A stretch of DNA of 52,186 nt from Gammaproteobacteria bacterium (GTDB taxonomy: Bacteria; Pseudomonadota; Gammaproteobacteria; SG8-11). How positions within the stretch are numbered: the first letter of the stretch is position 1; each line of letters begins with the position of its first letter. Made by a program: the position numbers and the translations under genes. The stretch lies in assembly GCA_013151345.1 (NCBI GenBank), contig JAADIM010000119.1:1-52186 (forward strand), in the 5' to 3' direction. Of the stretch, positions 1 through 28,404 are shown one piece after another. The notes beneath the pieces are model-generated. The model was not told where the DNA came from, searched no databases, and saw only the letters and a list, made by a program, of their open reading frames with translations.

Positions 1-30
1 TTTTGTTAATCGCTTTGTTTTTTAGTTACA

Positions 31-92
31 AAGTAACTGAAAATAATTTCTAATGCCTATTGACTCGAGAACGGCTCATATGTGTTATGTTC
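31..92 (-). repeat. attC-like site E (downstream of the 225-aa ORF); left boundary uncertain
   Basis: gttatgttc (84-92) overlaps the ORF stop codon and is the exact reverse complement of gaacataac (783-791) at the start of the same cassette. Candidate R' boxes are ttctaat (48-54) or aagtaac (31-37). Arm pairing is weak. Confidence 0.4.
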
Positions 93-762
93 CTGACGCC
101 CATGCCGCAGGGTACCGAATCTCCGACCGCGAACCAGACTCCACTTGCATGAGCGTTTCCACAAGGTCGTCGATGTAGAGAATCGCCTGAATCATCTCAA
201 CCAGCGCAAAGAGCACAACCGGGAGTCCGTCCTGATCATCCCCAAGGAACCCGAGAGCCGACTCAACCAACCTCTTCTTGTCCGCGTTCCGGTGGTATTC
301 GTACGAGTTCAACCAATCCATTACCGTATCAACGCTTAGCATATTGCGGTTAGAAAAGTTCAAGCCCACTTGGCGCTGTAAGGCCTTGAGCGTGAACTTC
401 TCGTTGAGCATGTCGAGGTGTTTGCGGAACGCGTGGTGTTCGAGTCTTCTCTTGAGGAGCTTCTTGATCTTGTGGAAGTAGCACTCTTCGTCTTTCAGAA
501 CGAAGGGGCGGATCCTTAGTAGCAGCGCACCGACTTCTTCAGTGTCGACGGGCTTCGCGTTTGATCTAAGAGGGCTGCCCACTTCCCACCTCATGGCTAT
601 CTGCCCACCGCGCTCATTCTGCACGAAATTGGTTGAACGCAGACGTTCCACCTCCCCGTGAAAACGTCGAAGCCGTTCCCACTCGTCATCGGGAACCTCA
701 TAGAAAATGGCCTCGCCGTGAGATCCGTCGTCGGTCAGGAGTTCGAAAGCTAGCAGGGCCAT
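85..762 (-). CDS. Hypothetical protein (cassette-borne, GC-rich orphan)
   Basis: 225-aa ORF bounded by attC-like sites. I recognise no family motif. A spot count of one 60-nt line gives about 55% G+C, against about 35% in the next cassette. Confidence 0.7.
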   Translation of the reverse strand: MALLAFELLTDDGSHGEAIFYEVPDDEWERLRRFHGEVERLRSTNFVQNERGGQIAMRWEVGSPLRSNAKPVDTEEVGALLLRIRPFVLKDEECYFHKIKKLLKRRLEHHAFRKHLDMLNEKFTLKALQRQVGLNFSNRNMLSVDTVMDWLNSYEYHRNADKKRLVESALGFLGDDQDGLPVVLFALVEMIQAILYIDDLVETLMQVESGSRSEIRYPAAWASGT

Positions 763-782
763 AGTGTGTCAGCTCCATGTGT

Positions 783-890
783 GAACATAACGCCTGAATT
801 GAGTTGCGTATTTTTTTTCGCCTCTTTTTGTGCGACCTTGCACAAAAAGAGGCGAAAAAAAATATGTCAACTCGAATTAATTGTTAGGCG
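783..890 (-). repeat. attC-like site A (downstream of the kinase/TPR cassette)
   Basis: Outer arms are acataacGCCtgaattgagttg (785-) and caactcGaattaattgttaggc (-889), with one unpaired G on the plus-strand 3' arm. The inner stem is near-perfect: ttttttttcgcctctttttgtgc / gcacaaaaagaggcgaaaaaaaa. On the minus strand the boxes read GCCTAAC ... GTTATGT. Confidence 0.75.
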
Positions 891-1022
891 AAAAGTATAA
901 CAGTACTATAATTTACACATCACTATCTTACTTTATAATATTTATAGAACTAATATTCAAAAAAGCAAAACACAAGACCAACCCCACGCCTTTCATTGAA
1001 AATACTGGGTAACCTATTTTTA

Positions 1023-2531
1023 TCATTTTTTACTTATTTTAAATGTTTCTTTTAAATTGCCAACCAAATAATCTATACTGGGATCTTGGTGATCTTTAGC
1101 TACAAGCAAAAGATCTTTGATATTCTCTTCAGGATTAAACACATTAAGTTTCGCTTCTTCCAATAAATAATAATACGTAACCAAAAATAGCTTAAATCTA
1201 CTATTAACCTCTTTAGCTAACTCAATTGAGCGTTTATATCTCTCCCGACCACTAGTAATATTACCAATTCGGTAATCTAATAGCCCCTTAGTTGCCAGTA
1301 TCATTTGTTTATCAGCAGGATTAAGATTAATTTCAATAATTGAATCTAATTTTTCTTGTGCGCTAGAATAGTTCCCCAATTGTATTTCAGCAAATATTAA
1401 GTTGTTCAATAGGATTTTATTCTCTTGATTACATCTTAAACCATAGGAAGCGAAATTTTTTGATAATTTAAAGTCATTCATACAAATTGCAGCTACATAC
1501 GAGCCAAGAACTGCAGGACGACTAGAAAACGGTTGGTCATTTTGCCATTTTTCAGTACTGTTAACAGTACCTATCCAATCCTTCTTCTGATAACAAAGCA
1601 AAGCATTAGCTTCAAATGTATTTTGAAGATCTAATTTATTCAGAGGAAGTAATATTTTTTTATCTTTCCTATGCGCCCATTCTACTTGTGCCACACTATT
1701 TTCTGTAGGGTCGACCAAAGATTGATCAAATAATTTTTTAGCCTTTTTATGCTTACCAAAAGATAATTCAGTTGTTGCTACAGCTGAAGCAAGCTCGCTT
1801 ATGTGCCAAAAAGAGAATTTTTTATCTTCAATTATTTTAATTCCTATCTTAATATTCTTAGATGTCTTGCTATTTGCTTGCGCAGTCGCAATCTCCGCTG
1901 ATATTAACCAAGGGTCATATTTTAATGAACTAGCTTTTCTAATTGTATCTAATGCTCTAGCAGTATCGTCGTGATGAATAAACATTCTAACGGCAGACCT
2001 CAAAACAAACCTATTATTAGGCGCAAGATAAAGCGCATTACTCATACTTCTCTCTGCCTTAATTTTTTCACCCAATATTGTGTAAAAATACGCTAAATCA
2101 GCCCAGCCAATAGGATCTCGTGGAGTTTCACTAAGCCTTCTCTTTTGTTTTGAAATAATCGAAGCGTAACGAAACAAATCTTGGTGAGAATAATAATTTA
2201 GTTTACTTTGTAATAATTTTTCGGGTTCAGTAATAGAAACAATTAAGTCACTTAATAATTTATTTTCTGGGGCGTTTATTTTTAGAAACTTTATAACTTC
2301 CAAATATTCATTAGATTGTTCAGTTAGACACGCTGTAGCCAGAAGATCCACTGCATGAGCAATATCCTTATTACTCTGCCAATCATGATTTTTTTTGAGT
2401 AAGATTTCTTCTCGATCAAGAAATTGAATATTATTATTCAATGAAGCAAGCTGGTTACTTGATGTAGCAACATGAAACGCGCGCCATCTAGGAATAACTT
2501 GGCGATCAAGCTCATTAACTATGATACTCAA
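1023..2531 (-). CDS. TPR-like all-helical repeat protein, partner of the upstream kinase
   Basis: 502-aa ORF with a TTG start 22 nt after the kinase stop. It shows repeated helix-hairpin (TPR/Sel1-like) segments, e.g. WADLAYFYTILGEKIKAERSMSNALYLAPNN and LIFAEIQLGNYSSAQEKLDSIIEINLNPAD. No catalytic motif is visible. Confidence 0.7.
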   Translation of the reverse strand: MSIIVNELDRQVIPRWRAFHVATSSNQLASLNNNIQFLDREEILLKKNHDWQSNKDIAHAVDLLATACLTEQSNEYLEVIKFLKINAPENKLLSDLIVSITEPEKLLQSKLNYYSHQDLFRYASIISKQKRRLSETPRDPIGWADLAYFYTILGEKIKAERSMSNALYLAPNNRFVLRSAVRMFIHHDDTARALDTIRKASSLKYDPWLISAEIATAQANSKTSKNIKIGIKIIEDKKFSFWHISELASAVATTELSFGKHKKAKKLFDQSLVDPTENSVAQVEWAHRKDKKILLPLNKLDLQNTFEANALLCYQKKDWIGTVNSTEKWQNDQPFSSRPAVLGSYVAAICMNDFKLSKNFASYGLRCNQENKILLNNLIFAEIQLGNYSSAQEKLDSIIEINLNPADKQMILATKGLLDYRIGNITSGRERYKRSIELAKEVNSRFKLFLVTYYYLLEEAKLNVFNPEENIKDLLLVAKDHQDPSIDYLVGNLKETFKISKK

Positions 2532-2553
2532 TTATTTTAAGCCCCTGTATAAT

Positions 2554-3621
2554 CTACTTAGCAATCTTAATTTTATATTCTGCCTTTTTTGCTAATCGAT
2601 CAAATATATTACTATAACGCTCCACAGAATACCTTTGACCCTCACCTATTGATCGGTCTTTTGGATGCCCACGGAAACTAACGTCTGGTTCGCATAATTG
2701 CGATATAGCAGTAAGAAGATCTACACTATACTCCTCATAGTTCAGTTCAAAATAGTCTTTAAGGTCAATAATTAAATTAGAATATGCTTCTTTTAAATAA
2801 GGCAAAACATCTTCATATGTTCCACCCCACACAGATGGGTGGTATTGCTTATCCAGTTTTGTAACCAACAAAGAATTAATAGGCTGCTGTACAAATATGA
2901 AACAGATCAATCCACCCAGCATATATAAGTCTGAGCTTAATCTGCGTTTCTCCCAGTCAGGTGTCTCATAGTGGTAAAGTTTTTCTATTGGTGCATATCC
3001 AGGATCACCGGGGAAAATCTTTTCATCGTGAGGCCCTATATATCCTTTTAACGAGGATCGTCCAAAATCACATATTTTGGACGTGCGATTGTCGATAACA
3101 ACAATGTTAGATGGTTTGATATCCTGGTGTGCTATTTTTATGTAGTGCAGCTGCTTCAATCCTACAGCCACATTATGTAGTAGACAGAACTTCCAAGCAT
3201 CATCAACAACATCCCAGTTTTTTATATAGCGCCTGATATCGCCCTCACCCAGTTCAAATATTACATATTGAACATTGCTCAATAAATCTTTAGGGTCTAA
3301 TTGAATGTTATTCCACTCGATAAGACGTATCACCTTACTTAGCTTCTTTTCCTTACAAAGTTCAACTAGCTTTCTTTCAAATAAATGCTCATTTACAATT
3401 GGCTGAAGTGCCGACGCAGGGTCAGAATTTTCTAATGCTTTTGAATAATCCATAGCCTTCAGAAAGGCTTTTTCACCACTTATTTTTTCAACGACGTAGG
3501 AACATGAAAAATTAGATCCAGTTTGTTGTCCGGTCATACTTATCAATTGCGAAACTTTCCAACCATTATCTAAATTAAGACCGGTAAGCATCTCAGCAGG
3601 TTTAACAGTAGAATTGTTCAT
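2554..3621 (-). CDS. Hanks-type (eukaryotic-like) Ser/Thr protein kinase, soluble, no sensor domain
   Basis: 355-aa ORF with AFLKAM (VAIK lysine), catalytic loop HQDIKPSN, CDFG, and PGYAPIE (APE). No clear GxGxxG loop and no TM segment. Confidence 0.85.
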   Translation of the reverse strand: MNNSTVKPAEMLTGLNLDNGWKVSQLISMTGQQTGSNFSCSYVVEKISGEKAFLKAMDYSKALENSDPASALQPIVNEHLFERKLVELCKEKKLSKVIRLIEWNNIQLDPKDLLSNVQYVIFELGEGDIRRYIKNWDVVDDAWKFCLLHNVAVGLKQLHYIKIAHQDIKPSNIVVIDNRTSKICDFGRSSLKGYIGPHDEKIFPGDPGYAPIEKLYHYETPDWEKRRLSSDLYMLGGLICFIFVQQPINSLLVTKLDKQYHPSVWGGTYEDVLPYLKEAYSNLIIDLKDYFELNYEEYSVDLLTAISQLCEPDVSFRGHPKDRSIGEGQRYSVERYSNIFDRLAKKAEYKIKIAK

Positions 3622-3638
3622 AGACTTTTATTAGATTA

Positions 3639-3697
3639 CCCTAAAATAAATTTGTCAACTCGAACGCCTGGTTATAATTGACTCGCTATTTAGAATT
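3639..3697 (-). repeat. attC-like site B (downstream of the HigBA cassette), short and degenerate
   Basis: tttagaatt (3689-3697) is the reverse complement of 8 of the 9 bases aattctaac (4743-4751) that start this cassette. It has a GTCAA/TTGAC L-box-like stem and ccctaaaa (3639-3646) as a degenerate R'. It shares a 16-mer (15/16 identical), aat(a/t)tgtcaactcgaa, with site A. Confidence 0.45.
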
Positions 3698-4002
3698 GAT
3701 TACCAACAGGCAAACTCCCCTAGATTTTTTATTGCGTCACCGCAACGCATTGAACTGTTTTTTTTCGTTTACTACCAACTAAATACCCGCACGCGCTGAG
3801 TCTTTGATGGCTAATGAGTATTTCGTATCTATCAGTATAGTTCAAGATTTCAACTTTGAGATAGCTAGCTGAACAGAGATAACTTTTGAACAGAGACACA
3901 AAGAACAAAACAAAAAACTAGAAAATATAGCTGCATTCCAATTCATTTTTTTAAAATACAAATTACTAATTCTCAATAATCTCATAAAATTATAACGATG
4001 AG

Positions 4003-4356
4003 TTAAGCGGCGCGCGTCTTTTTGCGCGTCCGGCGAGCATCGCGAGCGAACTTTAACGTTTTGTTAGAATTGCTGCCTAATGCCCTCAATACTGCTTTTG
4101 GCTCTTTAGCAACAACGTTGAGCAAAACTAATGCTGGACCATGAGGCGTGCGATCACCGCGCTCCCAATGTCGCAAGGTACTTACGCTAATGCCAAATGC
4201 AGATGCAAATTCACTTTGAGACATTCCAACATTAGAGCGAACATTTTTAACATCGATAGGAGTAAACTCATGTACGATTGCTTTTAACTTTTTACCCTTA
4301 GCATGCTCTATCGCTTCACCAAGACCTTTTTTGATACTCTCATATGCATTACTCAT
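4003..4356 (-). CDS. HTH (XRE-family) antitoxin, HigA-like
   Basis: 117-aa ORF overlapping the toxin stop by 4 nt. The HTH segment is MSQSEFASAFGISVSTLRHWERGDRTP. It lies downstream of the toxin, which is the HigBA gene order. Confidence 0.8.
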   Translation of the reverse strand: MSNAYESIKKGLGEAIEHAKGKKLKAIVHEFTPIDVKNVRSNVGMSQSEFASAFGISVSTLRHWERGDRTPHGPALVLLNVVAKEPKAVLRALGSNSNKTLKFARDARRTRKKTRAA

Positions 4357-4694
4357 TTATTTCCACCTCCATAGCTCTTTACTAGTATTGCTGTCAGCTT
4401 TGCTAATTCCTTACCCTCTGCTTTTGTAATATTCGCTTTCTCGCCTTTCCCAAATACGGTGAGCAAAAATAAAGGTATCGTTTCATTATGATGATAATAA
4501 ATAACTCGTACACCTCCACTTTTACCCTTGCCTTGAGCTGACCATCGTAACTTCCTGATACCTCCTGTTCCTTGCATAATATCGCCAGCGGCTGGATGAG
4601 TCGCTAAGTAATTGATAATACTTTCTTTCTCATCCGTTGAGAGTAGTTTAGAAGATTTTCTTTGAAATTCTGGGAGTTCAACTACAGTTTGCAT
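4353..4694 (-). CDS. RelE/ParE-superfamily toxin, HigB-like
   Basis: 113-aa ORF. GGIRKLRW...GKSGGVRVIYYH...LFLLTVFGKGEKANI is typical of HigB/Gp49-like toxins. It precedes its antitoxin. Confidence 0.8.
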   Translation of the reverse strand: MQTVVELPEFQRKSSKLLSTDEKESIINYLATHPAAGDIMQGTGGIRKLRWSAQGKGKSGGVRVIYYHHNETIPLFLLTVFGKGEKANITKAEGKELAKLTAILVKSYGGGNK

Positions 4695-4703
4695 GAACTA
4701 TAG

Positions 4704-4722
4704 TGTAATCCAATGGATTACA
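4704..4722. promoter_or_regulatory. Perfect 9-1-9 palindrome, candidate HigA operator in the TA promoter region
   Basis: TGTAATCCA-A-TGGATTACA lies 10 nt upstream of the higB-like ATG. On the minus strand it is flanked by TTGATC and TACACT/TATAGT hexamers. Confidence 0.55.
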
Positions 4723-4742
4723 GTGATCAAGATGAAATTTAA

Positions 4743-4842
4743 AATTCTAACGCCTTGCTCAGCGGCAATTCAAAGCGGCACGTTTTTGCGAATGCAAAAC
4801 AAGTGCCGCTTTGAATTGTCCGCTGGAGCTATTTGTTAGCAT
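4743..4842 (-). repeat. attC-like site C (downstream of the DUF4209-like cassette)
   Basis: Left arm ttctaac-gccttgc-tcagcggcaattcaaagcggcac pairs with right arm gtgccgctttgaattgTccgctgGagc-tatttgttagca. Two unpaired bases (T, G) lie on the plus-strand 3' arm. gttagcat (4835-4842) is the reverse complement of atgctaac (6731-6738). Confidence 0.8.
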
Positions 4843-6715
4843 TTTTAGGTTCATGCTCATCCGCTGGTTTATTATCAACTTGCCCTGAATGTTTTGTATT
4901 CAAAAACGTGTTGAATACGATACGTAGGCCAAGCCACCATGCGTAAATAGAATAGGTTGATTGAGTTTCTTCGTAACCTAAAAGACCATGAGCCAGTTCA
5001 TTTCTTAAATTAGGGCCAAAAGAATTACAAAAAAGCGCTTTTATCTCAAAGGACAAATCTTCACCAAATATATCCTTGATTTCTGGTAGTTCTGCTAATG
5101 TGCTAAGCCCATTCTCATTTTCAATTCCATTTATGTCTAAATTTGTTGTTTTGACTCCATGCTGCTTCAAATGAAATCGAACTAAATTTTCAAGTTGTGG
5201 AATTAATATATGGAGCGCTGTTACAAAATCATTGTCATAACCAGCGAACAATGCCTTCGCTATCAATTGCTCACACTCTTGAGGTACGATTGGCGATTGC
5301 CTTGTTATCGAGTAAAAATCACCTTCTCGAAGCCGATGCTCTTGTCGCATTACCTCAAGCGCTGGCCAAATATTGCCCTGAACTACAATACCTAATTCCA
5401 TTGTGTAGTGTTTAACCATTTCTGGCCAAACAGTAGCTTCATCATCACCATTTCCTCCCAAATCTGCACCAGGACGCTTTGCTATTATCCTACCATCACG
5501 TGACATGTGAGTAGCAGAAAACATGACTTGCAGAGGATGTTCTCTCAACATTTTTTCAGAAAACTCTCTTACCTTTTTTACTCTTGCTCCTTGGTATACA
5601 TTGGCTAATGCAGCTAATGCATCAATAGCACTTTTTCCCCTAACTGAATTTCTAGAATTTTCAATAAATTCACTAATATCAATCCCTGGGGAAGTTATTT
5701 TTCCCATTTCTTCTAGTGACATTTCACCAGCAGAACTTAACTTTGTGCGAAGACTTGAAATTCGGCCATCAACATCATAATTACTTCTTTGAGATTTTGG
5801 GATGTTCCTGTACTTTTGGATAGCATTTTCATAAAATCCTGCAGCAACCATATTGCTAGGTGAATTTGAAGATTGTCTTGCTACGGCCTCCTTCTCCCAT
5901 CCTTCTGCTACTTTTACAGTTACCTCTGCACTTTTATCTTCGTTTCCTAATTTTCTATATACTTCCGCTGCTGCATCGAAATAATCTCTTGCTCTATGTA
6001 AATCGCCTGAGTCATCAAAATCAATTGCTAGTTGTTCTAGCTTCTGAGCTACACTGTCTTGTTTTTGGCGGCCTAGATTATGTTTTGAAAGTAGGTCAGA
6101 AACCCATAGAACTAAATATCCATCTTCATTAGTTAAATTTTCAACTACATCTAGCAATTCTTTTTCTATCTCTTGCAGCCGTTCTCCAGCACCAGCTTTA
6201 AGCATAAAACACAGCTGAATTGATCTGTCCCAACATTCTCGGCCATCTCTAACCCATAAATTAGTGCTAATTGGTAATCGGCGATAATTATCTATTGCTA
6301 ATAGTGCATGCTTTGGATCTTTTGGTTTCAGGAGCAACCATGATATATCAGCAATGCGAGCACAAAGACGAGGGTCGCTAATTTCCTCCGCTATCTGAGC
6401 AAAAAGAGAAATCTCATTTTCCTGAAAGTCTTCTGGCAATGCGGATCTCTTTCCATCCATTACCATATATGGTTTAAAAGGTTCATTGAGGCTTGAAGGT
6501 CTAAGCATCATTGAACAAGCATCTGCGAGAATCCATAGAATCTTTCCTTCTGCTAATTTTTCATTTTCGATAGCTTGCCTAGCAAAAGAAGAAAGAGATT
6601 GCCATATAGAGGAATAGTCTTCTCGATTCGCATCAGCTATTGCTGCTAGCCAATCGCTATTTCGAAAATCATCTATAGAGATGTCTATGCCTTCTGGATA
6701 TCTCTCCATTATCAA
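4829..6715 (-). CDS. Large protein with a C-terminal RNxxxHG motif (DUF4209-like, HEPN-type Rx4H)
   Basis: 628-aa ORF. The track start is TTG at 6715; ATG at 6709 lies 10 nt after AAGGAG. The C-terminal sequence FGPNLRNELAHGLL is encoded at 4985-5005. The N-terminal two-thirds is helical with no motif I recognise. Confidence 0.75.
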   Translation of the reverse strand: MIMERYPEGIDISIDDFRNSDWLAAIADANREDYSSIWQSLSSFARQAIENEKLAEGKILWILADACSMMLRPSSLNEPFKPYMVMDGKRSALPEDFQENEISLFAQIAEEISDPRLCARIADISWLLLKPKDPKHALLAIDNYRRLPISTNLWVRDGRECWDRSIQLCFMLKAGAGERLQEIEKELLDVVENLTNEDGYLVLWVSDLLSKHNLGRQKQDSVAQKLEQLAIDFDDSGDLHRARDYFDAAAEVYRKLGNEDKSAEVTVKVAEGWEKEAVARQSSNSPSNMVAAGFYENAIQKYRNIPKSQRSNYDVDGRISSLRTKLSSAGEMSLEEMGKITSPGIDISEFIENSRNSVRGKSAIDALAALANVYQGARVKKVREFSEKMLREHPLQVMFSATHMSRDGRIIAKRPGADLGGNGDDEATVWPEMVKHYTMELGIVVQGNIWPALEVMRQEHRLREGDFYSITRQSPIVPQECEQLIAKALFAGYDNDFVTALHILIPQLENLVRFHLKQHGVKTTNLDINGIENENGLSTLAELPEIKDIFGEDLSFEIKALFCNSFGPNLRNELAHGLLGYEETQSTYSIYAWWLGLRIVFNTFLNTKHSGQVDNKPADEHEPKNANK

Positions 6716-6730
6716 AAGACTCCTTTTTTT

Positions 6731-6807
6731 ATGCTAACATCCCGCATAACTAGCGTGTGCATTTTATGCGTCAAATTTGAAGCGGTTGTTATAGGTTATT
6801 GTTATTT
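6731..6807 (-). repeat. attC-like site D (upstream boundary of the DUF4209-like cassette), degenerate
   Basis: atgctaac (6731-6738) is complementary to the inverse core of site C. It has an internal 7-bp stem cgcataa/ttatgcg and three tandem GTTAT boxes at 6788-6807, the last overlapping the esterase stop codon. The spacer is strongly asymmetric. Confidence 0.45.
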
Positions 6808-7509
6808 CAGACTCGTTATTTTTTGCTCGATGGCCTGGGTGATTTTTGATTTCATATCGGTGAATATACCATGGTGGCCTCCATCAAATTCAGAAAACAT
6901 CACATTAACACCCTTTACCTGCAAAATATTTACTGCATTCTTGCCTCCGCTGATCGAAATTACGCTGTCATTTTTGCCATGAAAGGCAATAACTTTAGCG
7001 CCTGGTCTAAATGTTGCATCACCAAGATGCTCATTAGATAGCTGCCCAGATACTGGAAAAATATAAGAATAACTATTGCCATATTTTGCGGCCTGATAAT
7101 AGGCCATCATACCCCCACCAGAGAAACCCAGTAGAATCGGTTTCCGTACAGTCGGGTATTTTTGCGCAAGTAACTCGATTGCCTCATTTACCGCTTTTCC
7201 ATATAGAGCAAAATCAGACGCGCTCCATGGCCAGGCACTGCCACTGCCATGGGAAATAGGGCCTTTAAGTAAAATAATGCGTGCGGGAACGTTTAGCTGA
7301 TCCAAGGCAGAATTATAGAAATTCTTAGCCGTATCGCCATTACCATGGAGCGCAACTAGCATAGGAAGATAATCCGTTCGACGACTATTCCCAGAATATT
7401 CTACAATATAACTAAAGCTGACATCGTTAGTGGGTACACTAATAGTCGGATCTTTAAACCACCATTGTGCGAGCCCCAATACAAAAATAATTAGAATAAT
7501 TTTTTTCAC
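6802..7509 (-). CDS. Secreted alpha/beta-hydrolase (carboxylesterase/phospholipase family)
   Basis: 235-aa ORF with an N-terminal signal-like segment, the GFSGGG nucleophile elbow (GxSxG), and a conserved His near the C-terminus (GGHHG). Confidence 0.75.
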   Translation of the reverse strand: MKKIILIIFVLGLAQWWFKDPTISVPTNDVSFSYIVEYSGNSRRTDYLPMLVALHGNGDTAKNFYNSALDQLNVPARIILLKGPISHGSGSAWPWSASDFALYGKAVNEAIELLAQKYPTVRKPILLGFSGGGMMAYYQAAKYGNSYSYIFPVSGQLSNEHLGDATFRPGAKVIAFHGKNDSVISISGGKNAVNILQVKGVNVMFSEFDGGHHGIFTDMKSKITQAIEQKITSLK

Positions 7510-7534
7510 TTTTACCTACTATTGTTTTCTAATA

Positions 7535-7918
7535 CTACTTAGGCCCTGCCTCGTCGCCCTTATTTAGTCTATCTGATATTTTTTTACAGCTCATTAAAGT
7601 CTCACTTAATTGCTGTGGTGTCATGAGATTCAGTTTATTTCTAAACTCTCCAAGCTCGTTGATGTAAGCAGGGTGATTTTCTATATCCTGAATAATAGAA
7701 TTATGTTTTTCCCTCCAGCGGGCATAGACCTCCATAGTATTTAAATAATATTCTGGTATATGCAAATCACATGCTTTTTTTATAATTAGTATATGATTTA
7801 TTTTATTCATCTCTTCGTCACTATATGTCCCGTTATCTTTAGTTTCTCCAAATATGACTTGAGGTAATATAAATAATAAAATACATATAATTAAATATTG
7901 TAATAACTTCATTTGCAA
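7535..7918 (-). CDS. Hypothetical secreted protein
   Basis: 127-aa ORF with a hydrophobic N-terminal signal-like segment. No family recognised. Confidence 0.55.
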   Translation of the reverse strand: MQMKLLQYLIICILLFILPQVIFGETKDNGTYSDEEMNKINHILIIKKACDLHIPEYYLNTMEVYARWREKHNSIIQDIENHPAYINELGEFRNKLNLMTPQQLSETLMSCKKISDRLNKGDEAGPK

Positions 7919-13182: not shown

Positions 13183-13422
13183 ATGGCTAAAAATACAAGT
13201 ATTACACTTGGAGATCACTTCGATGAGTTTATTTCCGACCGAATTAAAAATGGACGATATGGTTCTGCCAGTGAGGTTGTTCGAGCTGGATTGCGCCTTC
13301 TTGAAACCACAGAAACTAAGCTTGAGATGCTCCGTGCCATGCTTGCCGAAGGTGAAAATAGTGGATTTGCAGATTACTCTTACGATAATTTGATTAAAGA
13401 ACTTGATAATGAGTCCCATTAA
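13183..13422 (+). CDS. parD: ParD-type (RHH) antitoxin
   Basis: MAKNTSITLGDHFDEFI...GRYGSASEVVRAGLRLLE. ATG at 13183 lies 7 nt after AGGTG (the ORF track starts earlier, at 13168). It overlaps parE by 1 nt (TAATG). Confidence 0.85.
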   Translation: MAKNTSITLGDHFDEFISDRIKNGRYGSASEVVRAGLRLLETTETKLEMLRAMLAEGENSGFADYSYDNLIKELDNESH

Positions 13423-13739
13423 TGCCCGCCTATAAGGTCACAAACAAAGCTAAAGCAGACCTTATCGCAATTGGACGGTATACAACAAAAAAATGGGGAG
13501 TAGCACAAAGGAACGACTACCTTAAACAATTAGATAATTGTTTTTCACAAATCTCCGAAAATCCAAAGCTCGGTGTTACTAGTGATCTTATCAAAAAAGA
13601 CTATCGTAAATTTCCGCAAGGCAGCCACCTCATTTTCTACAAACAAAACCTAAACGGAATCATTGAGATAATCAGAGTATTACATAAGACCATGGACATC
13701 GAATCTAATATTGATAAAACAGTCACGGTAGGAACGTAA
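13422..13739 (+). CDS. parE: ParE-type toxin (RelE/ParE superfamily)
   Basis: 105-aa ORF. The sequence DLIAIGRYTTKKWGVAQRNDYL...YRKFPQGSHLIFYK...IEIIRVLH is typical of ParE. Confidence 0.85.
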   Translation: MPAYKVTNKAKADLIAIGRYTTKKWGVAQRNDYLKQLDNCFSQISENPKLGVTSDLIKKDYRKFPQGSHLIFYKQNLNGIIEIIRVLHKTMDIESNIDKTVTVGT

Positions 13740-13740
13740 G

Positions 13741-14215
13741 TCGCCCAACGCCCCCCGCACAGATCCCCGCATGAAGTTTTCCCTCACGGGGCTCCTCGGT
13801 CACACTCGCTTTCGCAGTCAGCAAAGACTTCATCGGCTCACCACCACACCTTGTTTAATGCTGGCTTCACTCGACATTTTGGTATCGGCAAAGCCAAGAA
13901 GGTTAACGTGCACTTCAGTCGCTCCCAGGTATAACTACGTCGTCCACTTCGTCGATTTAACCACCTATAAAGTAGTTTCACCACATATCGTTTGACGGCA
14001 TAAAGTCCAGCCAGATTGCCAATCACTCCAAAGTAGTTGTAATGCCCTCGCAACTTATCCACCAAGCTGGCCAGCAATAATGAGATCTTCATATGCCGGT
14101 TCTCCTTGATGTATTCCTTTAAGTTGTTCTTCGCTGTTTGCAGTCTTTCTCTTCCTGTTCGTCGGAACAATCTCGGCTTTTCTTTCTTGTCCAATTCCCA
14201 ATGGAATTCAAAACT
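13741..14215 (-). mobile_element. 5'-truncated group II intron remnant (maturase C-terminus plus domain V/VI region)
   Basis: It carries a maturase-like ORF tail. About 44 nt downstream, on the minus strand, GAGCCCCGTGAGGGAAAACTTCATGCGGGGATC (plus 13762-13794) folds like domain V: an 8-bp lower stem with one mismatch, a 2-nt bulge, and an upper stem capped by a GAAA-type loop. No RT domains and no domains I-III are present. Confidence 0.7.
13838..14212 (-). pseudogene. Group II intron-encoded protein fragment (thumb/X and C-terminal part only)
   Basis: FEFHW...KLRGHYNYFGVIGN...RWLNRRSGRRSYTWERL...LPIPK matches the conserved C-terminal maturase region of bacterial intron-encoded proteins. The upstream RT motifs are absent. 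Confidence 0.75.
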
Positions 14216-14239
14216 CAAAAAATAGAAATAGGGGAGGTA

Positions 14240-14325
14240 GGGACACCGATGACTTAAGGACTTAACGACACTGAGAAGCAATTATTCTACAACTTTGTTT
14301 AAGTCCTTAAGTCCTCGGCGTCCCC
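14240..14325. repeat. Long inverted repeat (27-bp arms, 25/27 paired, 30-nt loop)
   Basis: gggacaccgatgacttaaggacttaac (14240-14266) pairs with gtttaagtccttaagtcctcggcgtccc (14297-14324). It sits exactly where the intron remnant loses homology. Confidence 0.8.
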
Positions 14326-27222: not shown

Positions 27223-28404
27223 ATGCCCATCAATTCACTCATGCCCACCTATGGCCGATTACCCGTCACTTTTGAACGTGGCGAAGGAAGTTGGCTATGG
27301 GATACAGACGGCCAGAAATACCTAGACGCTTTTAGTGGTGTTGCCGTGTGTAATCTGGGGCACTCGCACCCCAATGTATCTAACGCACTATGCGAACAAG
27401 CAAAAAAACTTGTGCATACATCAAACTGGTATGGCATTGCGCACCAAAAACAACTGGCTGAGGAATTAACCCGTCTGTCCGGTATGGACAATGTTTTTTT
27501 CTGCAACTCGGGTGCCGAAGCTAACGAAACAGCAATAAAAATTGCACGTTTGTACGGCCACAAGAAAAAAATCAGTAATCCTGTCATTGTAGTAACGGAA
27601 CGAAGCTTTCATGGTCGAACCTTGGCGACACTGAGTGCGACAGGAAGTAGAAAAGTTCAGGCAGGATTCGAACCATTAGTCACCGGCTTTATACGAGTGC
27701 CGTTCAATGATTTAGATGCACTGAATAAACTAGCAGAGAACAGTCCAGACATTGTCGCAATTCTGGTTGAACCTGTTCAGGGTGAAGGCGGCGTTAATAT
27801 TCCTGATGAAGATTATCTACCCGGCATTCGGAAACTTTGTGATGAGCACCAATGGTTGATGATGCTGGACGAAGTACAAACAGGCATGTGTCGTACCGGC
27901 AAATGGTTTGCATTTCAACATTCAAATTCCAAACCTGATGTAATGCCTCTTGCTAAAGCATTGGCTAACGGCGTGCCAATTGGTGCCTGCCTCGCACATG
28001 GTGCGGCAGCTGACGTCTTACAGCAGGGCAATCATGGTTCCACTTTTGGAGGCAATCCATTGGCGACTAGTGCCGCCATTGCGACGATTAAAACCATGGA
28101 AGAAAATGATTTAGCAAACCAGGCATTAAAACTCGGTCGAAGCATGTTAAGCACTTTGCAAAACGCATTAGCCAAAGAACCTCATGTAAAAGACATCCGC
28201 GGATTGGGCCTAATGATAGGCATAGAACTAGACTGCCCCTGCTTTGAATTAGTCACAAAAGCACTTGAGCAGAAGTTATTAATAAACGTGACGGCGGAAC
28301 GCGTCATCCGTCTATTACCCCCCCTAACCATGAGTGAATCTGAGTCCAGATTAATAACGGACCAGGTCATTTCATTGGTTAGGCATTTTGTCTCTAGAAT
28401 ATAG
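27223..28404 (+). CDS. argD: Acetylornithine aminotransferase (class III PLP aminotransferase)
   Basis: 393-aa ORF with [19 protein letters not shown] and [10 protein letters not shown]. It is followed by argF. Confidence 0.85.

Follow-up and report, generated by a model that had tools for sequence, protein, structure and literature searches.

The window analysed here, 52 kb long, is an entire contig from an uncultured gammaproteobacterium, and its left end falls within a series of compact gene units whose ORFs all lie on the minus strand. Read in that direction, the series starts at a junction at about 6738. The first cassette (1,987 bp, 4751-6737) carries an ORF (4829-6715) for a DUF7380 and DUF4209 protein of the HEPN superfamily (Pfam matches 5.5e-48 and 6e-20), which corresponds to the PADLOC candidate defence system PDC-S39 (5e-248) and has an RNELAH motif at residues 571-576; it is terminated by the site attC D. 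The second (755 bp, 3996-4750), terminated by attC C', encodes a toxin-antitoxin pair with a RelE-like toxin (4353-4694; Pfam RelE, 1.4e-7) and a NadS/MqsA-like HTH antitoxin (4003-4356; Pfam HTH_3, 9e-9; NCBIfam NadS, 2.8e-16). The third (356 bp, 3640-3995) ends in a truncated attC and holds no convincing ORF, just a 59 aa frame with a TTG start (3729-3908) in which an in-frame 34-codon ATG frame for a hydrophobic peptide is nested. The fourth unit (2.85 kb, 791-3639) combines a Ser/Thr protein kinase (2554-3621; Pfam Pkinase, 4e-13) with a TPR protein (1023-2531), the A and B components of the PADLOC candidate system PDC-M71 (4e-113 and 1.4e-128), and is terminated by attC B. The fifth (1-790) contains ORF1 (85-762, 225 aa), which found no family match in Pfam, PADLOC, NCBIfam or PDB, and its attC is interrupted by the contig end. 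Base composition changes sharply from cassette to cassette, as the preliminary description had noted, with G+C steps at the boundaries (0.51 in the ORF1 cassette, 0.34 in the kinase/TPR unit and 0.33 in the 356 bp cassette, followed by 0.41 and 0.39). Going by family matches, the payload would amount to a small kit of anti-phage and addiction functions: a HEPN protein of the RNase type, the kinase with its TPR partner, and the toxin-antitoxin pair.

The attC sites

Recombination sites were searched for with a covariance model, R2, trained solely on 19 attC sites from class 1 integrons on four plasmids; R2 is a proxy, distinct from the attC model of IntegronFinder. An earlier bootstrap version of the model with an 8 nt loop gave zero matches in the window. 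Over the whole 52 kb, R2 returned three matches, all within the left region that had been flagged beforehand: D (4745-4841, E = 2e-10), B (785-889, E = 3.4e-7) and C' (3990-4069, E = 0.11). All three are on the minus strand, in agreement with the earlier proposal that this strand is both the attC top strand and the coding strand of every cassette ORF. The palindromes are confined to the locus: every other score in the remaining 45 kb of the window had E >= 3.9, and in a further 147 kb of related metagenome loci, used as a negative control, none fell below E = 0.5. An independent energy-based scan placed B and D far ahead of all other AAC...GTT pairs in the window, and this heuristic ranked C' third among the intergenic candidates. 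Five attC palindromes had been proposed for the region. Those at 783-890 and 4743-4842 stand as B and D, while the sites at 31/48-92, 3639-3697 and 6731-6807 showed neither a fold signal nor an R2 match even at E <= 10, and C' was absent from that list.

Site D, which belongs to the PDC-S39 cassette, is 97 nt long (R2 46.5 bits) and reads TGCTAAC-AAATA-GCT...AGC-AAGGC-GTTAGAA on its top strand, with the R'' box TGCTAAC at plus 4835-4841 and the R' box GTTAGAA at plus 4745-4751. Its bottom strand, here the plus strand, has the 3' arm GAATTG-T-CCGCTG-G-AGC TATTT GTTAGCA and folds as single-stranded DNA at -38.6 kcal/mol (z = -9.0; 0 of 200 shuffles as good). Site B closes the kinase/TPR unit, is 105 nt long (34.8 bits) and reads GCCTAAC-AATTA-ATT...AAT-TCAGGC-GTTATGT, with R'' GCCTAAC at plus 883-889 and R' GTTATGT at plus 785-791. 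It has a perfect central stem of 25 bp and a bottom-strand 3' arm TATG-T-CAACTC-G-AAT TAATT GTTAGGC. The fold of B (z = -12.3; 0 of 200 shuffles as good) reaches -42.2 kcal/mol on the plus strand versus -37.2 kcal/mol on the minus strand, and the plus-strand fold is 5 kcal/mol better because a G-T wobble there is an A-C mismatch on the other strand.

On the plus strand, B and D both have the classical attC geometry: xxxxAAC, a spacer of 5-6 nt, an L box of 3 bp and the stem come first, then a T bulge set off by 6 bp from a G bulge, which 3 bp and a 5 nt spacer separate from the closing GTTRRRY. The extra unpaired bases (T-CAACTC-G-AAT in B, T-CCGCTG-G-AGC in D) sit on the plus-strand 3' arm in both sites, as had been claimed, and both the folds and the sequences confirm it. 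A pair of extrahelical T and G bases about 6 bp apart on the R''/L'' arm marks the bottom strand that is recombined. Site D resembles attC-estX and attC-cmlA1, sharing with them the block pattern GCT-x-CAGCGG-A ... CCGCTG-AGC-AAGGC-GTTAG, and B resembles aadA-type sites such as attC-aadA1 in its 5' spacer AATT.. and its 3' spacer TCAGGC. Unlike class 1 attC sites, those found here have long, AT-rich central stems (97-105 nt sites) and R boxes that depart from RYYYAAC/GTTRRRY at one or two positions, and the host is an uncultured gammaproteobacterium rather than a clinical plasmid.

Site C' (80 nt, 14.8 bits), assigned to the toxin-antitoxin cassette, reads TTCTAAC-AAAAC-GTT...AAC-TCATC-GTTATAA, with R'' TTCTAAC at plus 4063-4069 and R' GTTATAA at plus 3990-3996. 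The stop codon of the HTH ORF lies inside it. In a hand alignment to aadA1-type attC sites, its bottom-strand 3' arm holds about 18 nt more than the canonical geometry, and it is atypical in having a T at the position of the G bulge. By score alone C' is marginal. B, D and C' have paired L''/L' boxes, spacers and AAC/GTT, with one or two non-consensus bases outside AAC/GTT. Intact B and D, and probably C', could still be recombined in trans by an integrase, whether its gene lies elsewhere or is brought in on a mobile integron.

Cassette boundaries and decayed sites

The start of a cassette matches its own R'' box perfectly over 8-9 nt at four of four consecutive boundaries. Plus positions 783-791 are complementary to 84-92 (9/9), 3988-3996 on the R' side of C' to 3671-3679 (9/9), 4743-4751 to 4063-4071 on the R'' side of C' (9/9), and 6731-6738 to 4835-4842 at the R'' box of D (8/8, or 9 with an extension). 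Among 329 plus-strand 9-mers ending in TAAC, eight have an exact reverse complement 300-3500 nt leftward and three of these eight are array boundaries, which leaves a background rate of about 1.5% in the window. The first and last of these pairs had been reported before and are real, and an 8/9 pairing of 4743-4751 with 3689-3697 is superseded by the 9/9 match inside the overlooked C'. At the start of the kinase/TPR unit the match to its own R'' is limited to TTAGG (5/7). Such complementarity would follow from the way in which the units arrived. Each would once have been a circular cassette that an IntI-type tyrosine recombinase integrated by crossing over at G|TT on the folded bottom strand, here the plus strand, so that the first 6-8 bases of a cassette form the complement of the R'' box in that cassette's attC. 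The statement that ORF ends abut the TAAC box does not hold for the TPR gene, where 133 nt separate the stop codon (1023) from the box (889).

The truncated attC at 3640-3677 (minus strand) consists of an R''-L'' half that is homologous to the 5' half of B. On the top strand it reads TTATAAC CAGGC GTT-C-GAGTTG-A-CAAATTTATTTT; the 12-mer TTCGAGTTGACA occurs exactly at both 3653-3664 and 865-876, and 20 of 22 nt are identical to B. The 9/9 pair 3988-3996/3671-3679 places its R'' box at 3671-3677 and not at 3689-3697, and the originally proposed interval 3639-3697 folds like shuffled sequence (z = +0.1). The L'-R' half is absent and the kinase start codon follows 18 nt on, at 3621. B and the truncated site belong to the same attC family, and D and C' are unrelated in sequence. 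The truncated site would have fixed the kinase/TPR unit to its upstream neighbor. This unit has lost its own upstream boundary, none being recognisable. Homologous PDC-M71 pairs at the three loci examined lie in restriction-modification/Abi islands and have no flanking attC sites. At those loci the pair is not a cassette, and some process other than recombination by an integrase may have brought the kinase/TPR unit into the array.

Both ends of the array are less regular. At the upstream junction (6731-6807, minus strand), the top strand shows an R' box G|TTAGCAT (plus 6731-6738) preceded by the spacer GGGAT (5 nt) and a hairpin of 6-7 bp; a canonical R''-L'' half is missing and the fold is not significant (z = -1.1). 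Either an attC has decayed here to its 3' half, or this is the point at which cassettes were inserted into the genome (an attG-type junction). At the contig end, the start of the ORF1 cassette attC (1-92, minus strand) has an R'' box ACATAAC (plus 84-90) that overlaps the ORF1 stop codon. The interval 31-92 has a fold z of -0.9 and gave no R2 match, truncated-match mode included; the contig stops 84 nt further on and cuts short a site whose counterparts B and D are 97-105 nt long.

An array with no adjoining integrase and its possible origins

Positions 1-6738 very probably represent the terminal part of an integron gene-cassette array to which integrase, attI and Pc promoter do not adjoin, the class termed CALIN by Cury et al. 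(2016) in the IntegronFinder paper (PMC4889954). A CALIN comprises two or more attC sites that lie on one strand within 4 kb of each other, with neither intI nor an intI pseudogene nearby, and here three same-strand model matches are separated by gaps of 3.1 kb and 0.68 kb. As in other CALINs, cassettes are few, antibiotic resistance genes are absent and the ORFs are co-oriented with the attC top strand. Nothing essential sets this array apart. Its particular features are that it is partly decayed, with one attC reduced to its R''-L'' half and another carrying about 18 extra nt, and that its distal end lies off the contig. The preliminary description had proposed a CALIN-like array, and this interpretation survived both the attC-model test and the dispersal test that had been set beforehand.

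The earlier statement that the 52 kb contain no tyrosine recombinase ORF was upheld. No Phage_integrase domain was found with Pfam/NCBIfam in the listed ORFs of at least 194 aa outside the ribosomal-protein block at 36.8-52 kb, nor in several shorter ones, and tblastn of IntI1 over the whole window reached no better than E = 0.97, with no intI or pseudogene remnant. Sites of the attI type are too poorly conserved for searching; attC polarity puts any attI/intI rightward of the array. At that place, as had also been noted, stand ordinary genes: the first crossover lies 64 nt from the end of an alpha/beta hydrolase gene, beyond which come 45 kb of unrelated genes with ribosomal protein operons last. 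A complete integron, with intI, attI and Pc upstream of the first cassette, is thus not present in the window. Because the contig ends inside the array, the absence of an integrase holds for the contig and not for the genome.

How the array came to lie here can be explained in more than one way. It is possible, though we hold it tentatively, that an integrase placed one or several cassettes straight into a genomic G|WT site (attC x attG), in which case the array would not stem from the loss of an integrase and 6731-6738 would be a genomic site and not a decayed attC. Experiments have demonstrated this mechanism and its 5'-GWT-3' target, and it has been put forward as an origin of small CALINs (10.1101/2022.09.11.507474). 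A proper G|TT crossover is joined to the cassette-derived TTAGCAT at a junction that has no R''-L'' half and no significant fold, the hydrolase stop codon is just 64 nt away and an intI remnant is absent. A boundary at a plain genomic G|TT without upstream attC or attI structure, and with no integrase, is also what characterises the SALIN/attG genome-inserted cassettes in the preprint of Loot et al. (2023), although several cassettes rather than one are found here. Against such an insertion, the sequence TTATGC GGGAT G upstream of the crossover resembles an L' box, a 5 nt spacer and a short hairpin, as in the 3' half of an attC. No conserved neighbors of the hydrolase gene occur in 22 related loci, so that these offer no empty site for comparison.

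It is rather unlikely that the array is part of a complete, perhaps large and sedentary, chromosomal integron whose integrase resides in the same genome but has been parted from these cassettes by a rearrangement or, at the left contig end, by the break in the assembly. Further cassettes very probably follow, because the whole contig ends inside the ORF1 cassette attC, and B and the truncated 3640-3677 site are of one attC family, as is usual in chromosomal arrays. In about half of CALINs the replicon also encodes IntI, and rearrangement is among the origins proposed for them (PMC4889954). However, the attI/intI side to the right of 6738 is 45 kb of contiguous non-integron genes, no intI pseudogene was found, and D and C' differ from the B family, making the attC sites heterogeneous. 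As for size, a sedentary chromosomal integron has more than about 10-20 cassettes, whose attC sites are very alike; here the contig end cuts the count off at five units.

That the palindromes are ordinary intergenic hairpins, REP-like or terminators, with boundary complementarities due to chance in AT-rich DNA, is hardly credible and effectively refuted: three of the five proposed sites do fold like shuffled sequence, and scans of the region for terminators and promoters did no better than chance, but B and D match the class 1 attC model (E = 3e-7 and 2e-10) and are canonical in the geometry of their boxes, spacers and bulges, comparable sites are missing from the other 45 kb and from 147 kb of related DNA, a T run follows neither B nor D, the terminator scan has no matches at the attC sites, complementarity is perfect over 8-9 nt at four of four boundaries against a background of about 1.5%, and the PDC-S39 gene is attC-flanked in other genomes too.

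Candidate defence cassettes in and outside integrons

Same-strand attC matches flank homologues of the PDC-S39 protein (identities 64% and 81%) on both sides, scoring 37.3 and 17.5 bits in Kangiella profundi CP025120 and 25.9 and 34.1 bits in metagenome contigs, and the Kangiella copy follows the same R'/R'' logic (GTTAGGCA versus TGCCTAAC). ORF1 has one 57%-identical homologue, in a Desulfobulbaceae MAG, with a weak attC match (12.6 bits, E = 0.64) directly upstream. Integron cassettes are known to store defence systems (10.1101/2024.07.02.601719; 10.1101/2024.07.02.601686), as BRiCs in mobile integrons (Kieffer et al., preprint) and in sedentary chromosomal integrons that act as biobanks (Darracq et al., preprint). 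As in those integrons, compact candidate defence modules of one or two genes occur here as cassettes beside a toxin-antitoxin cassette, and homologues of the same systems are also found outside integrons, in defence islands. Unlike in those integrons, the array is without integrase or Pc promoter, and PDC-S39 and PDC-M71 are PADLOC candidates only, named in the main text of neither preprint.

A more far-reaching reading, which we consider improbable, is that the locus is a free-standing chromosomal defence island built by integron recombination at a non-integron site in a genome without an integrase of its own, where intact attC sites would keep PDC-S39 and the toxin-antitoxin pair exchangeable in trans and the truncated attC would reflect a 'domestication' of PDC-M71. 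If true, it would offer a snapshot of two-way traffic between defence islands and integron cassette pools.

Regardless of its origin, the array is a further well-supported example of an element already described, a CALIN with defence cassettes. It leaves the general understanding of integrons unchanged and adds to the known facts that integrase-less attC clusters are common cassette reservoirs (for their frequency see PMC4889954) and that cassettes are often anti-phage. The PDC-M71 kinase/TPR pair, lying beside a half-deleted attC, illustrates how cassettes can become fixed. PDC-S39 (HEPN/DUF4209) recurs, as a cassette with attC sites on its flanks, in at least three unrelated contexts, which makes it a stronger candidate for a mobile defence system.

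attC sites of the array

Among the five attC-like palindromes that the preliminary description placed between 31 and 6807, those at 783-890 (site B) and 4743-4842 (site D) are solid. Of the others, one is a half-site, one a junction and one is interrupted by the end of the contig, and a genuine site at 3990-4069 had been missed. Folded as single-stranded DNA, sites B and D reach -42.2 kcal/mol (z = -12.3) and -38.6 kcal/mol (z = -9.0), respectively, with 0 of 200 shuffles as good in either case, and the folds of 31-92 (z = -0.9), 3639-3697 (z = +0.1) and 6731-6807 (z = -1.1) are at the level of shuffled sequence. Among these five, only B and D were returned as long hairpins by an inverted-repeat finder. 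When the whole window was scanned heuristically on both strands and AAC...GTT pairs with R-box pairing were ranked by fold energy per nucleotide, 785-889 and 4745-4841 came out far above all else, and the intergenic candidate 3990-4069 (hereafter C') also came up.

At gathering thresholds, Rfam returned no attC family in the window, its only matches being a tRNA, a group II intron domain and an alpha-operon leader. Because Rfam holds no attC family, a proxy model was built from 15 attC sites delimited by eye in four class 1 integron arrays (plasmids R46, pND11_107, pACM1 and pFA267). A first MAFFT alignment of full-length class 1 attCs misplaced the 3′ arms and was discarded. A bootstrap model (R1, alignment A2) made from trimmed "mini-attCs" served only to align real sites for the final model; it recovered 19/19 attC copies in 91 kb of plasmid DNA, matching nothing else, and was blank on the window because its 8 nt loop cannot take up stems of ~60 nt. 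The final model (R2, alignment A3), rebuilt from the real full-length sites that R1 had recovered, with window sequence excluded, was applied to the entire window with filters disabled and matched the minus strand at 4745-4841 (46.5 bits, E = 2e-10), 785-889 (34.8 bits, E = 3.4e-7) and 3990-4069 (14.8 bits, E = 0.11). The next best match in the window had E = 3.9, and 31-92, 3639-3697 and 6731-6807 were not matched; 147 kb of related bacterial loci from metagenomes, used as a negative control, gave nothing below E = 0.5. The preliminary description had left room for two objections, that no attC-model match would be found on the minus strand and that the palindromes belong to a dispersed family; the three minus-strand matches dispose of the first, and the lack of further matches at these E-values in the window and in the related DNA speaks against the second. 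A weak palindromic fit to the R boxes at 28322-28384 (GCCTAAC...GTTAGGG, both strands, E about 4-6), lying across the end of an aminotransferase gene (27223-28404), was judged to be a chance match.

Sites B and D share a detailed anatomy. On the plus strand, B (785-889) reads ACATAAC GCCTGA ATT GAGTTG ...25 bp stem... TATG-T-CAACTC-G-AAT TAATT GTTAGGC and D (4745-4841) reads TTCTAAC GCCTT GCT CAGCGG ...stem... GAATTG-T-CCGCTG-G-AGC TATTT GTTAGCA, so that each has two 7 nt R boxes with AAC/GTT triplets, unpaired spacers of 5-6 nt and a 3 bp L box, and the 3′ arms are alike in having a bulged G, six base pairs and a bulged T. Sites of the attC-aadA1/aadA7 type are built in this way, with their bulged T and G on the R''/L'' arm of the bottom strand, the one that is recombined. 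The extrahelical bases were correctly placed on the plus-strand 3′ arm from the start, with T and G bulges there in both sites, and their position makes the plus strand the bottom strand and the minus strand the top strand. Every cassette ORF lies on the minus strand, that is, on the attC top strand. The plus strand of B folds 5 kcal/mol better than the minus strand, as expected, since a G-T wobble that pairs in one strand corresponds to an A-C mismatch in its complement. C' carries ~18 extra nucleotides (GCGAGCATCGCGAGCGAA) in its bottom-strand 3′ arm, splitting an aadA1-like T-CCGCTT-T-AAC arm, and the ORF of an HTH antitoxin runs through most of the site, with its stop codon in the L' box. 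Across the window, the plus strand shows negative GC skew throughout and the minus strand carries nearly all of the genes; the plus strand, with the attC bottom strands, is therefore the leading-strand template. Stable chromosomal integron arrays are reported to lie typically in this orientation.

Cassette boundaries and incomplete sites

Four cassette starts are perfect reverse complements of the R'' box of the cassette's own attC: GAACATAAC (783-791) with GTTATGTTC (84-92), AATTATAAC (3988-3996) with GTTATAATT (3671-3679) and AATTCTAAC (4743-4751) with GTTAGAATT (4063-4071), each 9/9, and ATGCTAAC (6731-6738) with GTTAGCAT (4835-4842), 8/8. Complementarity of this kind had been proposed earlier, and the pairs 783-791/84-92 and 6731-6738/4835-4842 stand as proposed, but the 8/9 pairing of 4743-4751 with 3689-3697 gives way to the 9/9 pairing with 4063-4071, which means that the toxin-antitoxin cassette ends in C'. 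Of 329 plus-strand 9-mers ending in TAAC, only eight have an exact reverse complement 300-3500 nt to the left, and three of the eight are these boundaries. Such complementarity is the signature expected of units that had once been circular and were opened at G|TT.

The three remaining palindromes are explained differently. The top strand at 3640-3677 reads TTATAAC CAGGC GTT-C-GAGTTG-A-CAAATTTATTTT; it shares an exact 12-mer and 20/22 nt with the 5′ half of site B, and diverges 18 nt before the kinase start codon. It is an attC cut down to its R''-L'' half, a reading preferred to that of 3639-3697 as a full attC, which was rejected; with this truncation the upstream boundary of the kinase/TPR unit has been lost. 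At 6731-6807 the R' box is good and is accompanied by a spacer of 5 nt and a hairpin of 6-7 bp, but the R''-L'' half is absent. The feature is therefore either what is left, as a 3′ half, of a decayed attC, or a junction formed by insertion into the genome at an attG-type site (5′-GWT-3′), as described by Loot et al. (10.1101/2022.09.11.507474). At 31-92 there is only an R'' box, overlapping the stop codon of ORF1, and the contig ends 84 nt beyond the box, compared with lengths of 97-105 nt for B and D. The array sits at the very end of the window, itself the complete contig of 52,186 bp. Such a position is typical of assemblies broken within repeated or strain-variable cassette arrays, and what is said of the array's size and of the absence of an integrase holds for this contig.

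Cassette content and homologues in other genomes

The cassette at 4751-6737 encodes a DUF7380 + DUF4209 protein that matches the PADLOC candidate defence system PDC-S39 over its full length (5e-248). Anantharaman et al. (PMC3710099) placed DUF4209 in the HEPN RNase superfamily; the window's protein carries an RNELAH motif at residues 571-576. The cassette at 3996-4750 encodes a RelE-like toxin and a NadS/MqsA-like HTH antitoxin, and the unit at 791-3639 a Ser/Thr kinase and a TPR protein matching PDC-M71 A and B (4e-113 and 1e-128). ORF1 (85-762), in the cassette at 1-790, had no match in any library used; PDB sequence searches with the PDC-S39 protein and ORF1 returned nothing. G+C by unit is 0.51, 0.34, 0.33, 0.41 and 0.39, with a backbone of about 0.43, and a promoter and terminator scan of 1-7600 gave results at chance level. 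No convincing gene was seen in the AT-rich cassette of 356 bp at 3640-3995; a 34-codon ATG frame nested in-frame within a 59 aa TTG ORF (3729-3908) would give a hydrophobic peptide (MNWNAAIFSSFLFCSLCLCSKVISVQLAISKLKS), which may act as a small peptide of the membrane or as a toxin, or be of no significance.

The defence candidates differ in their surroundings elsewhere. Hundreds of PDC-S39 homologues (60-88% identity) occur in many phyla, and dozens of them lie on contigs of 1.9-2.1 kb (~2.0 kb), close to the 1,987 bp of the cassette, which suggests that assemblies routinely break at the flanking attCs or that circular cassettes were sequenced. In Kangiella profundi (CP025120; locus L011, 9911-11944) a homologue stands between htpG and adk, bracketed by same-strand attC matches of 37.3 and 17.5 bits and with its own R'/R'' complementarity of 8/8. 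No recombinase gene was found within 10 kb of it, and the locus is another small integrase-less attC cluster with the same candidate defence gene. A metagenome contig (L008/L009) has a homologue bracketed by attC matches of 25.9 and 34.1 bits, and in one further assembly a homologue lies beside AAA_13 and GmrSD genes without attCs. PDC-M71 homologues (45-48% identical) were found in restriction-modification/Abi islands, with flanking attCs absent. Since PDC-S39 is attC-flanked elsewhere and the PDC-M71 homologues are not, at least the PDC-S39 unit (cassette 1) is a true integron cassette that recurs, and the kinase and TPR genes are normally a pair that belongs to islands. The only ORF1 homologue in the genome collection (57% identical) is in a Desulfobulbaceae MAG, with a weak attC upstream.

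Further features were seen in the comparison loci. At 371-6687 of L008/L009, the attC-flanked PDC-S39 cassette and two small ORFs are closely preceded, in the same orientation, by two tyrosine recombinase genes and a DUF6262 gene. The first of these recombinases was not accepted as an integron integrase, being only 26% identical to IntI1 over the catalytic C-terminus and lying beside the second recombinase gene and the DUF6262 gene; the locus may be a mobile element of another kind, one carrying cassettes or having captured them. A weak attC match (16.9 bits, E = 0.02; 11178-11240 of L013, 4826-4888 of L014) comes immediately after a gene of the NT5C family and lies two genes downstream of a PDC-M71 homologue, itself beside a type I restriction-modification/Abi locus; it may mark a lone cassette inside a defence island.

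Integrase, flank and standing of the array

The window had been described as having no integrase anywhere, and the searches agree: no tyrosine recombinase was found with Pfam and NCBIfam among the listed ORFs of at least 194 aa outside the ribosomal-protein block (36.8-52 kb) and several shorter ones, and a six-frame tblastn of the whole window with IntI1 gave a best E of only 0.97. Given the attC polarity, attI and intI would be expected to the right of 6738, where the end of an alpha/beta hydrolase gene lies 64 nt from the crossover, with 45 kb of genes for transport, metabolism and ribosomal proteins beyond it. Could the hydrolase gene (6802-7509) be a cassette itself? At 22 related metagenome loci, 21 of which were aligned to the window's neighbouring genes by tblastn, there was neither a neighbour shared with the window (0/21) nor an attC match (0/22), leaving this reading unsupported and yielding no empty site with which to compare the junction. 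About 60-120 nt downstream of the hydrolase homologue in L016/L017, GTTATGC and GCATAAC (7/7 complementary) lie 22 nt apart after a short hairpin; their likeness to cassette boundaries is superficial, with no attC-model match at E <= 5.

Elsewhere in the window, a 5′-truncated group II intron remnant (13722-14281, minus strand) consists of an ORF of 147 aa with a maturase (GIIM) domain only and, after it, an Rfam domain V/VI (13722-13796, 44 bits); its 3′ terminus and the end of a ParD/ParE toxin-antitoxin pair in convergent orientation (13184-13739, plus strand) overlap. No attC match in the window adjoins it, so that its identification as an attC-targeting (IIC-attC) intron is unsupported.

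A CALIN is defined operationally by two or more attC sites within 4 kb without an intI nearby (PMC4889954). The locus falls within this definition, and the original reading of it as a CALIN-like cassette array is supported by the attC-model matches, the boundaries and the absent integrase. CALINs are as common as complete integrons and about 95% of them are without a recognisable intI pseudogene (PMC4889954); proposed origins are integrase loss, rearrangement and insertion at secondary (attG) sites (PMC4889954; 10.1101/2022.09.11.507474). The best named relatives of the RpoA protein are annotated "MAG: Gammaproteobacteria bacterium" (75-77% identity), with metagenome sequences up to 95%, which points to an uncultured gammaproteobacterium as host. 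Two preprints (10.1101/2024.07.02.601719; 10.1101/2024.07.02.601686) have described defence systems carried by integron cassettes, and the main text of neither names PDC-S39, DUF4209 or any kinase system. The array is a further example of an already known type of element, and its defence genes are candidates.
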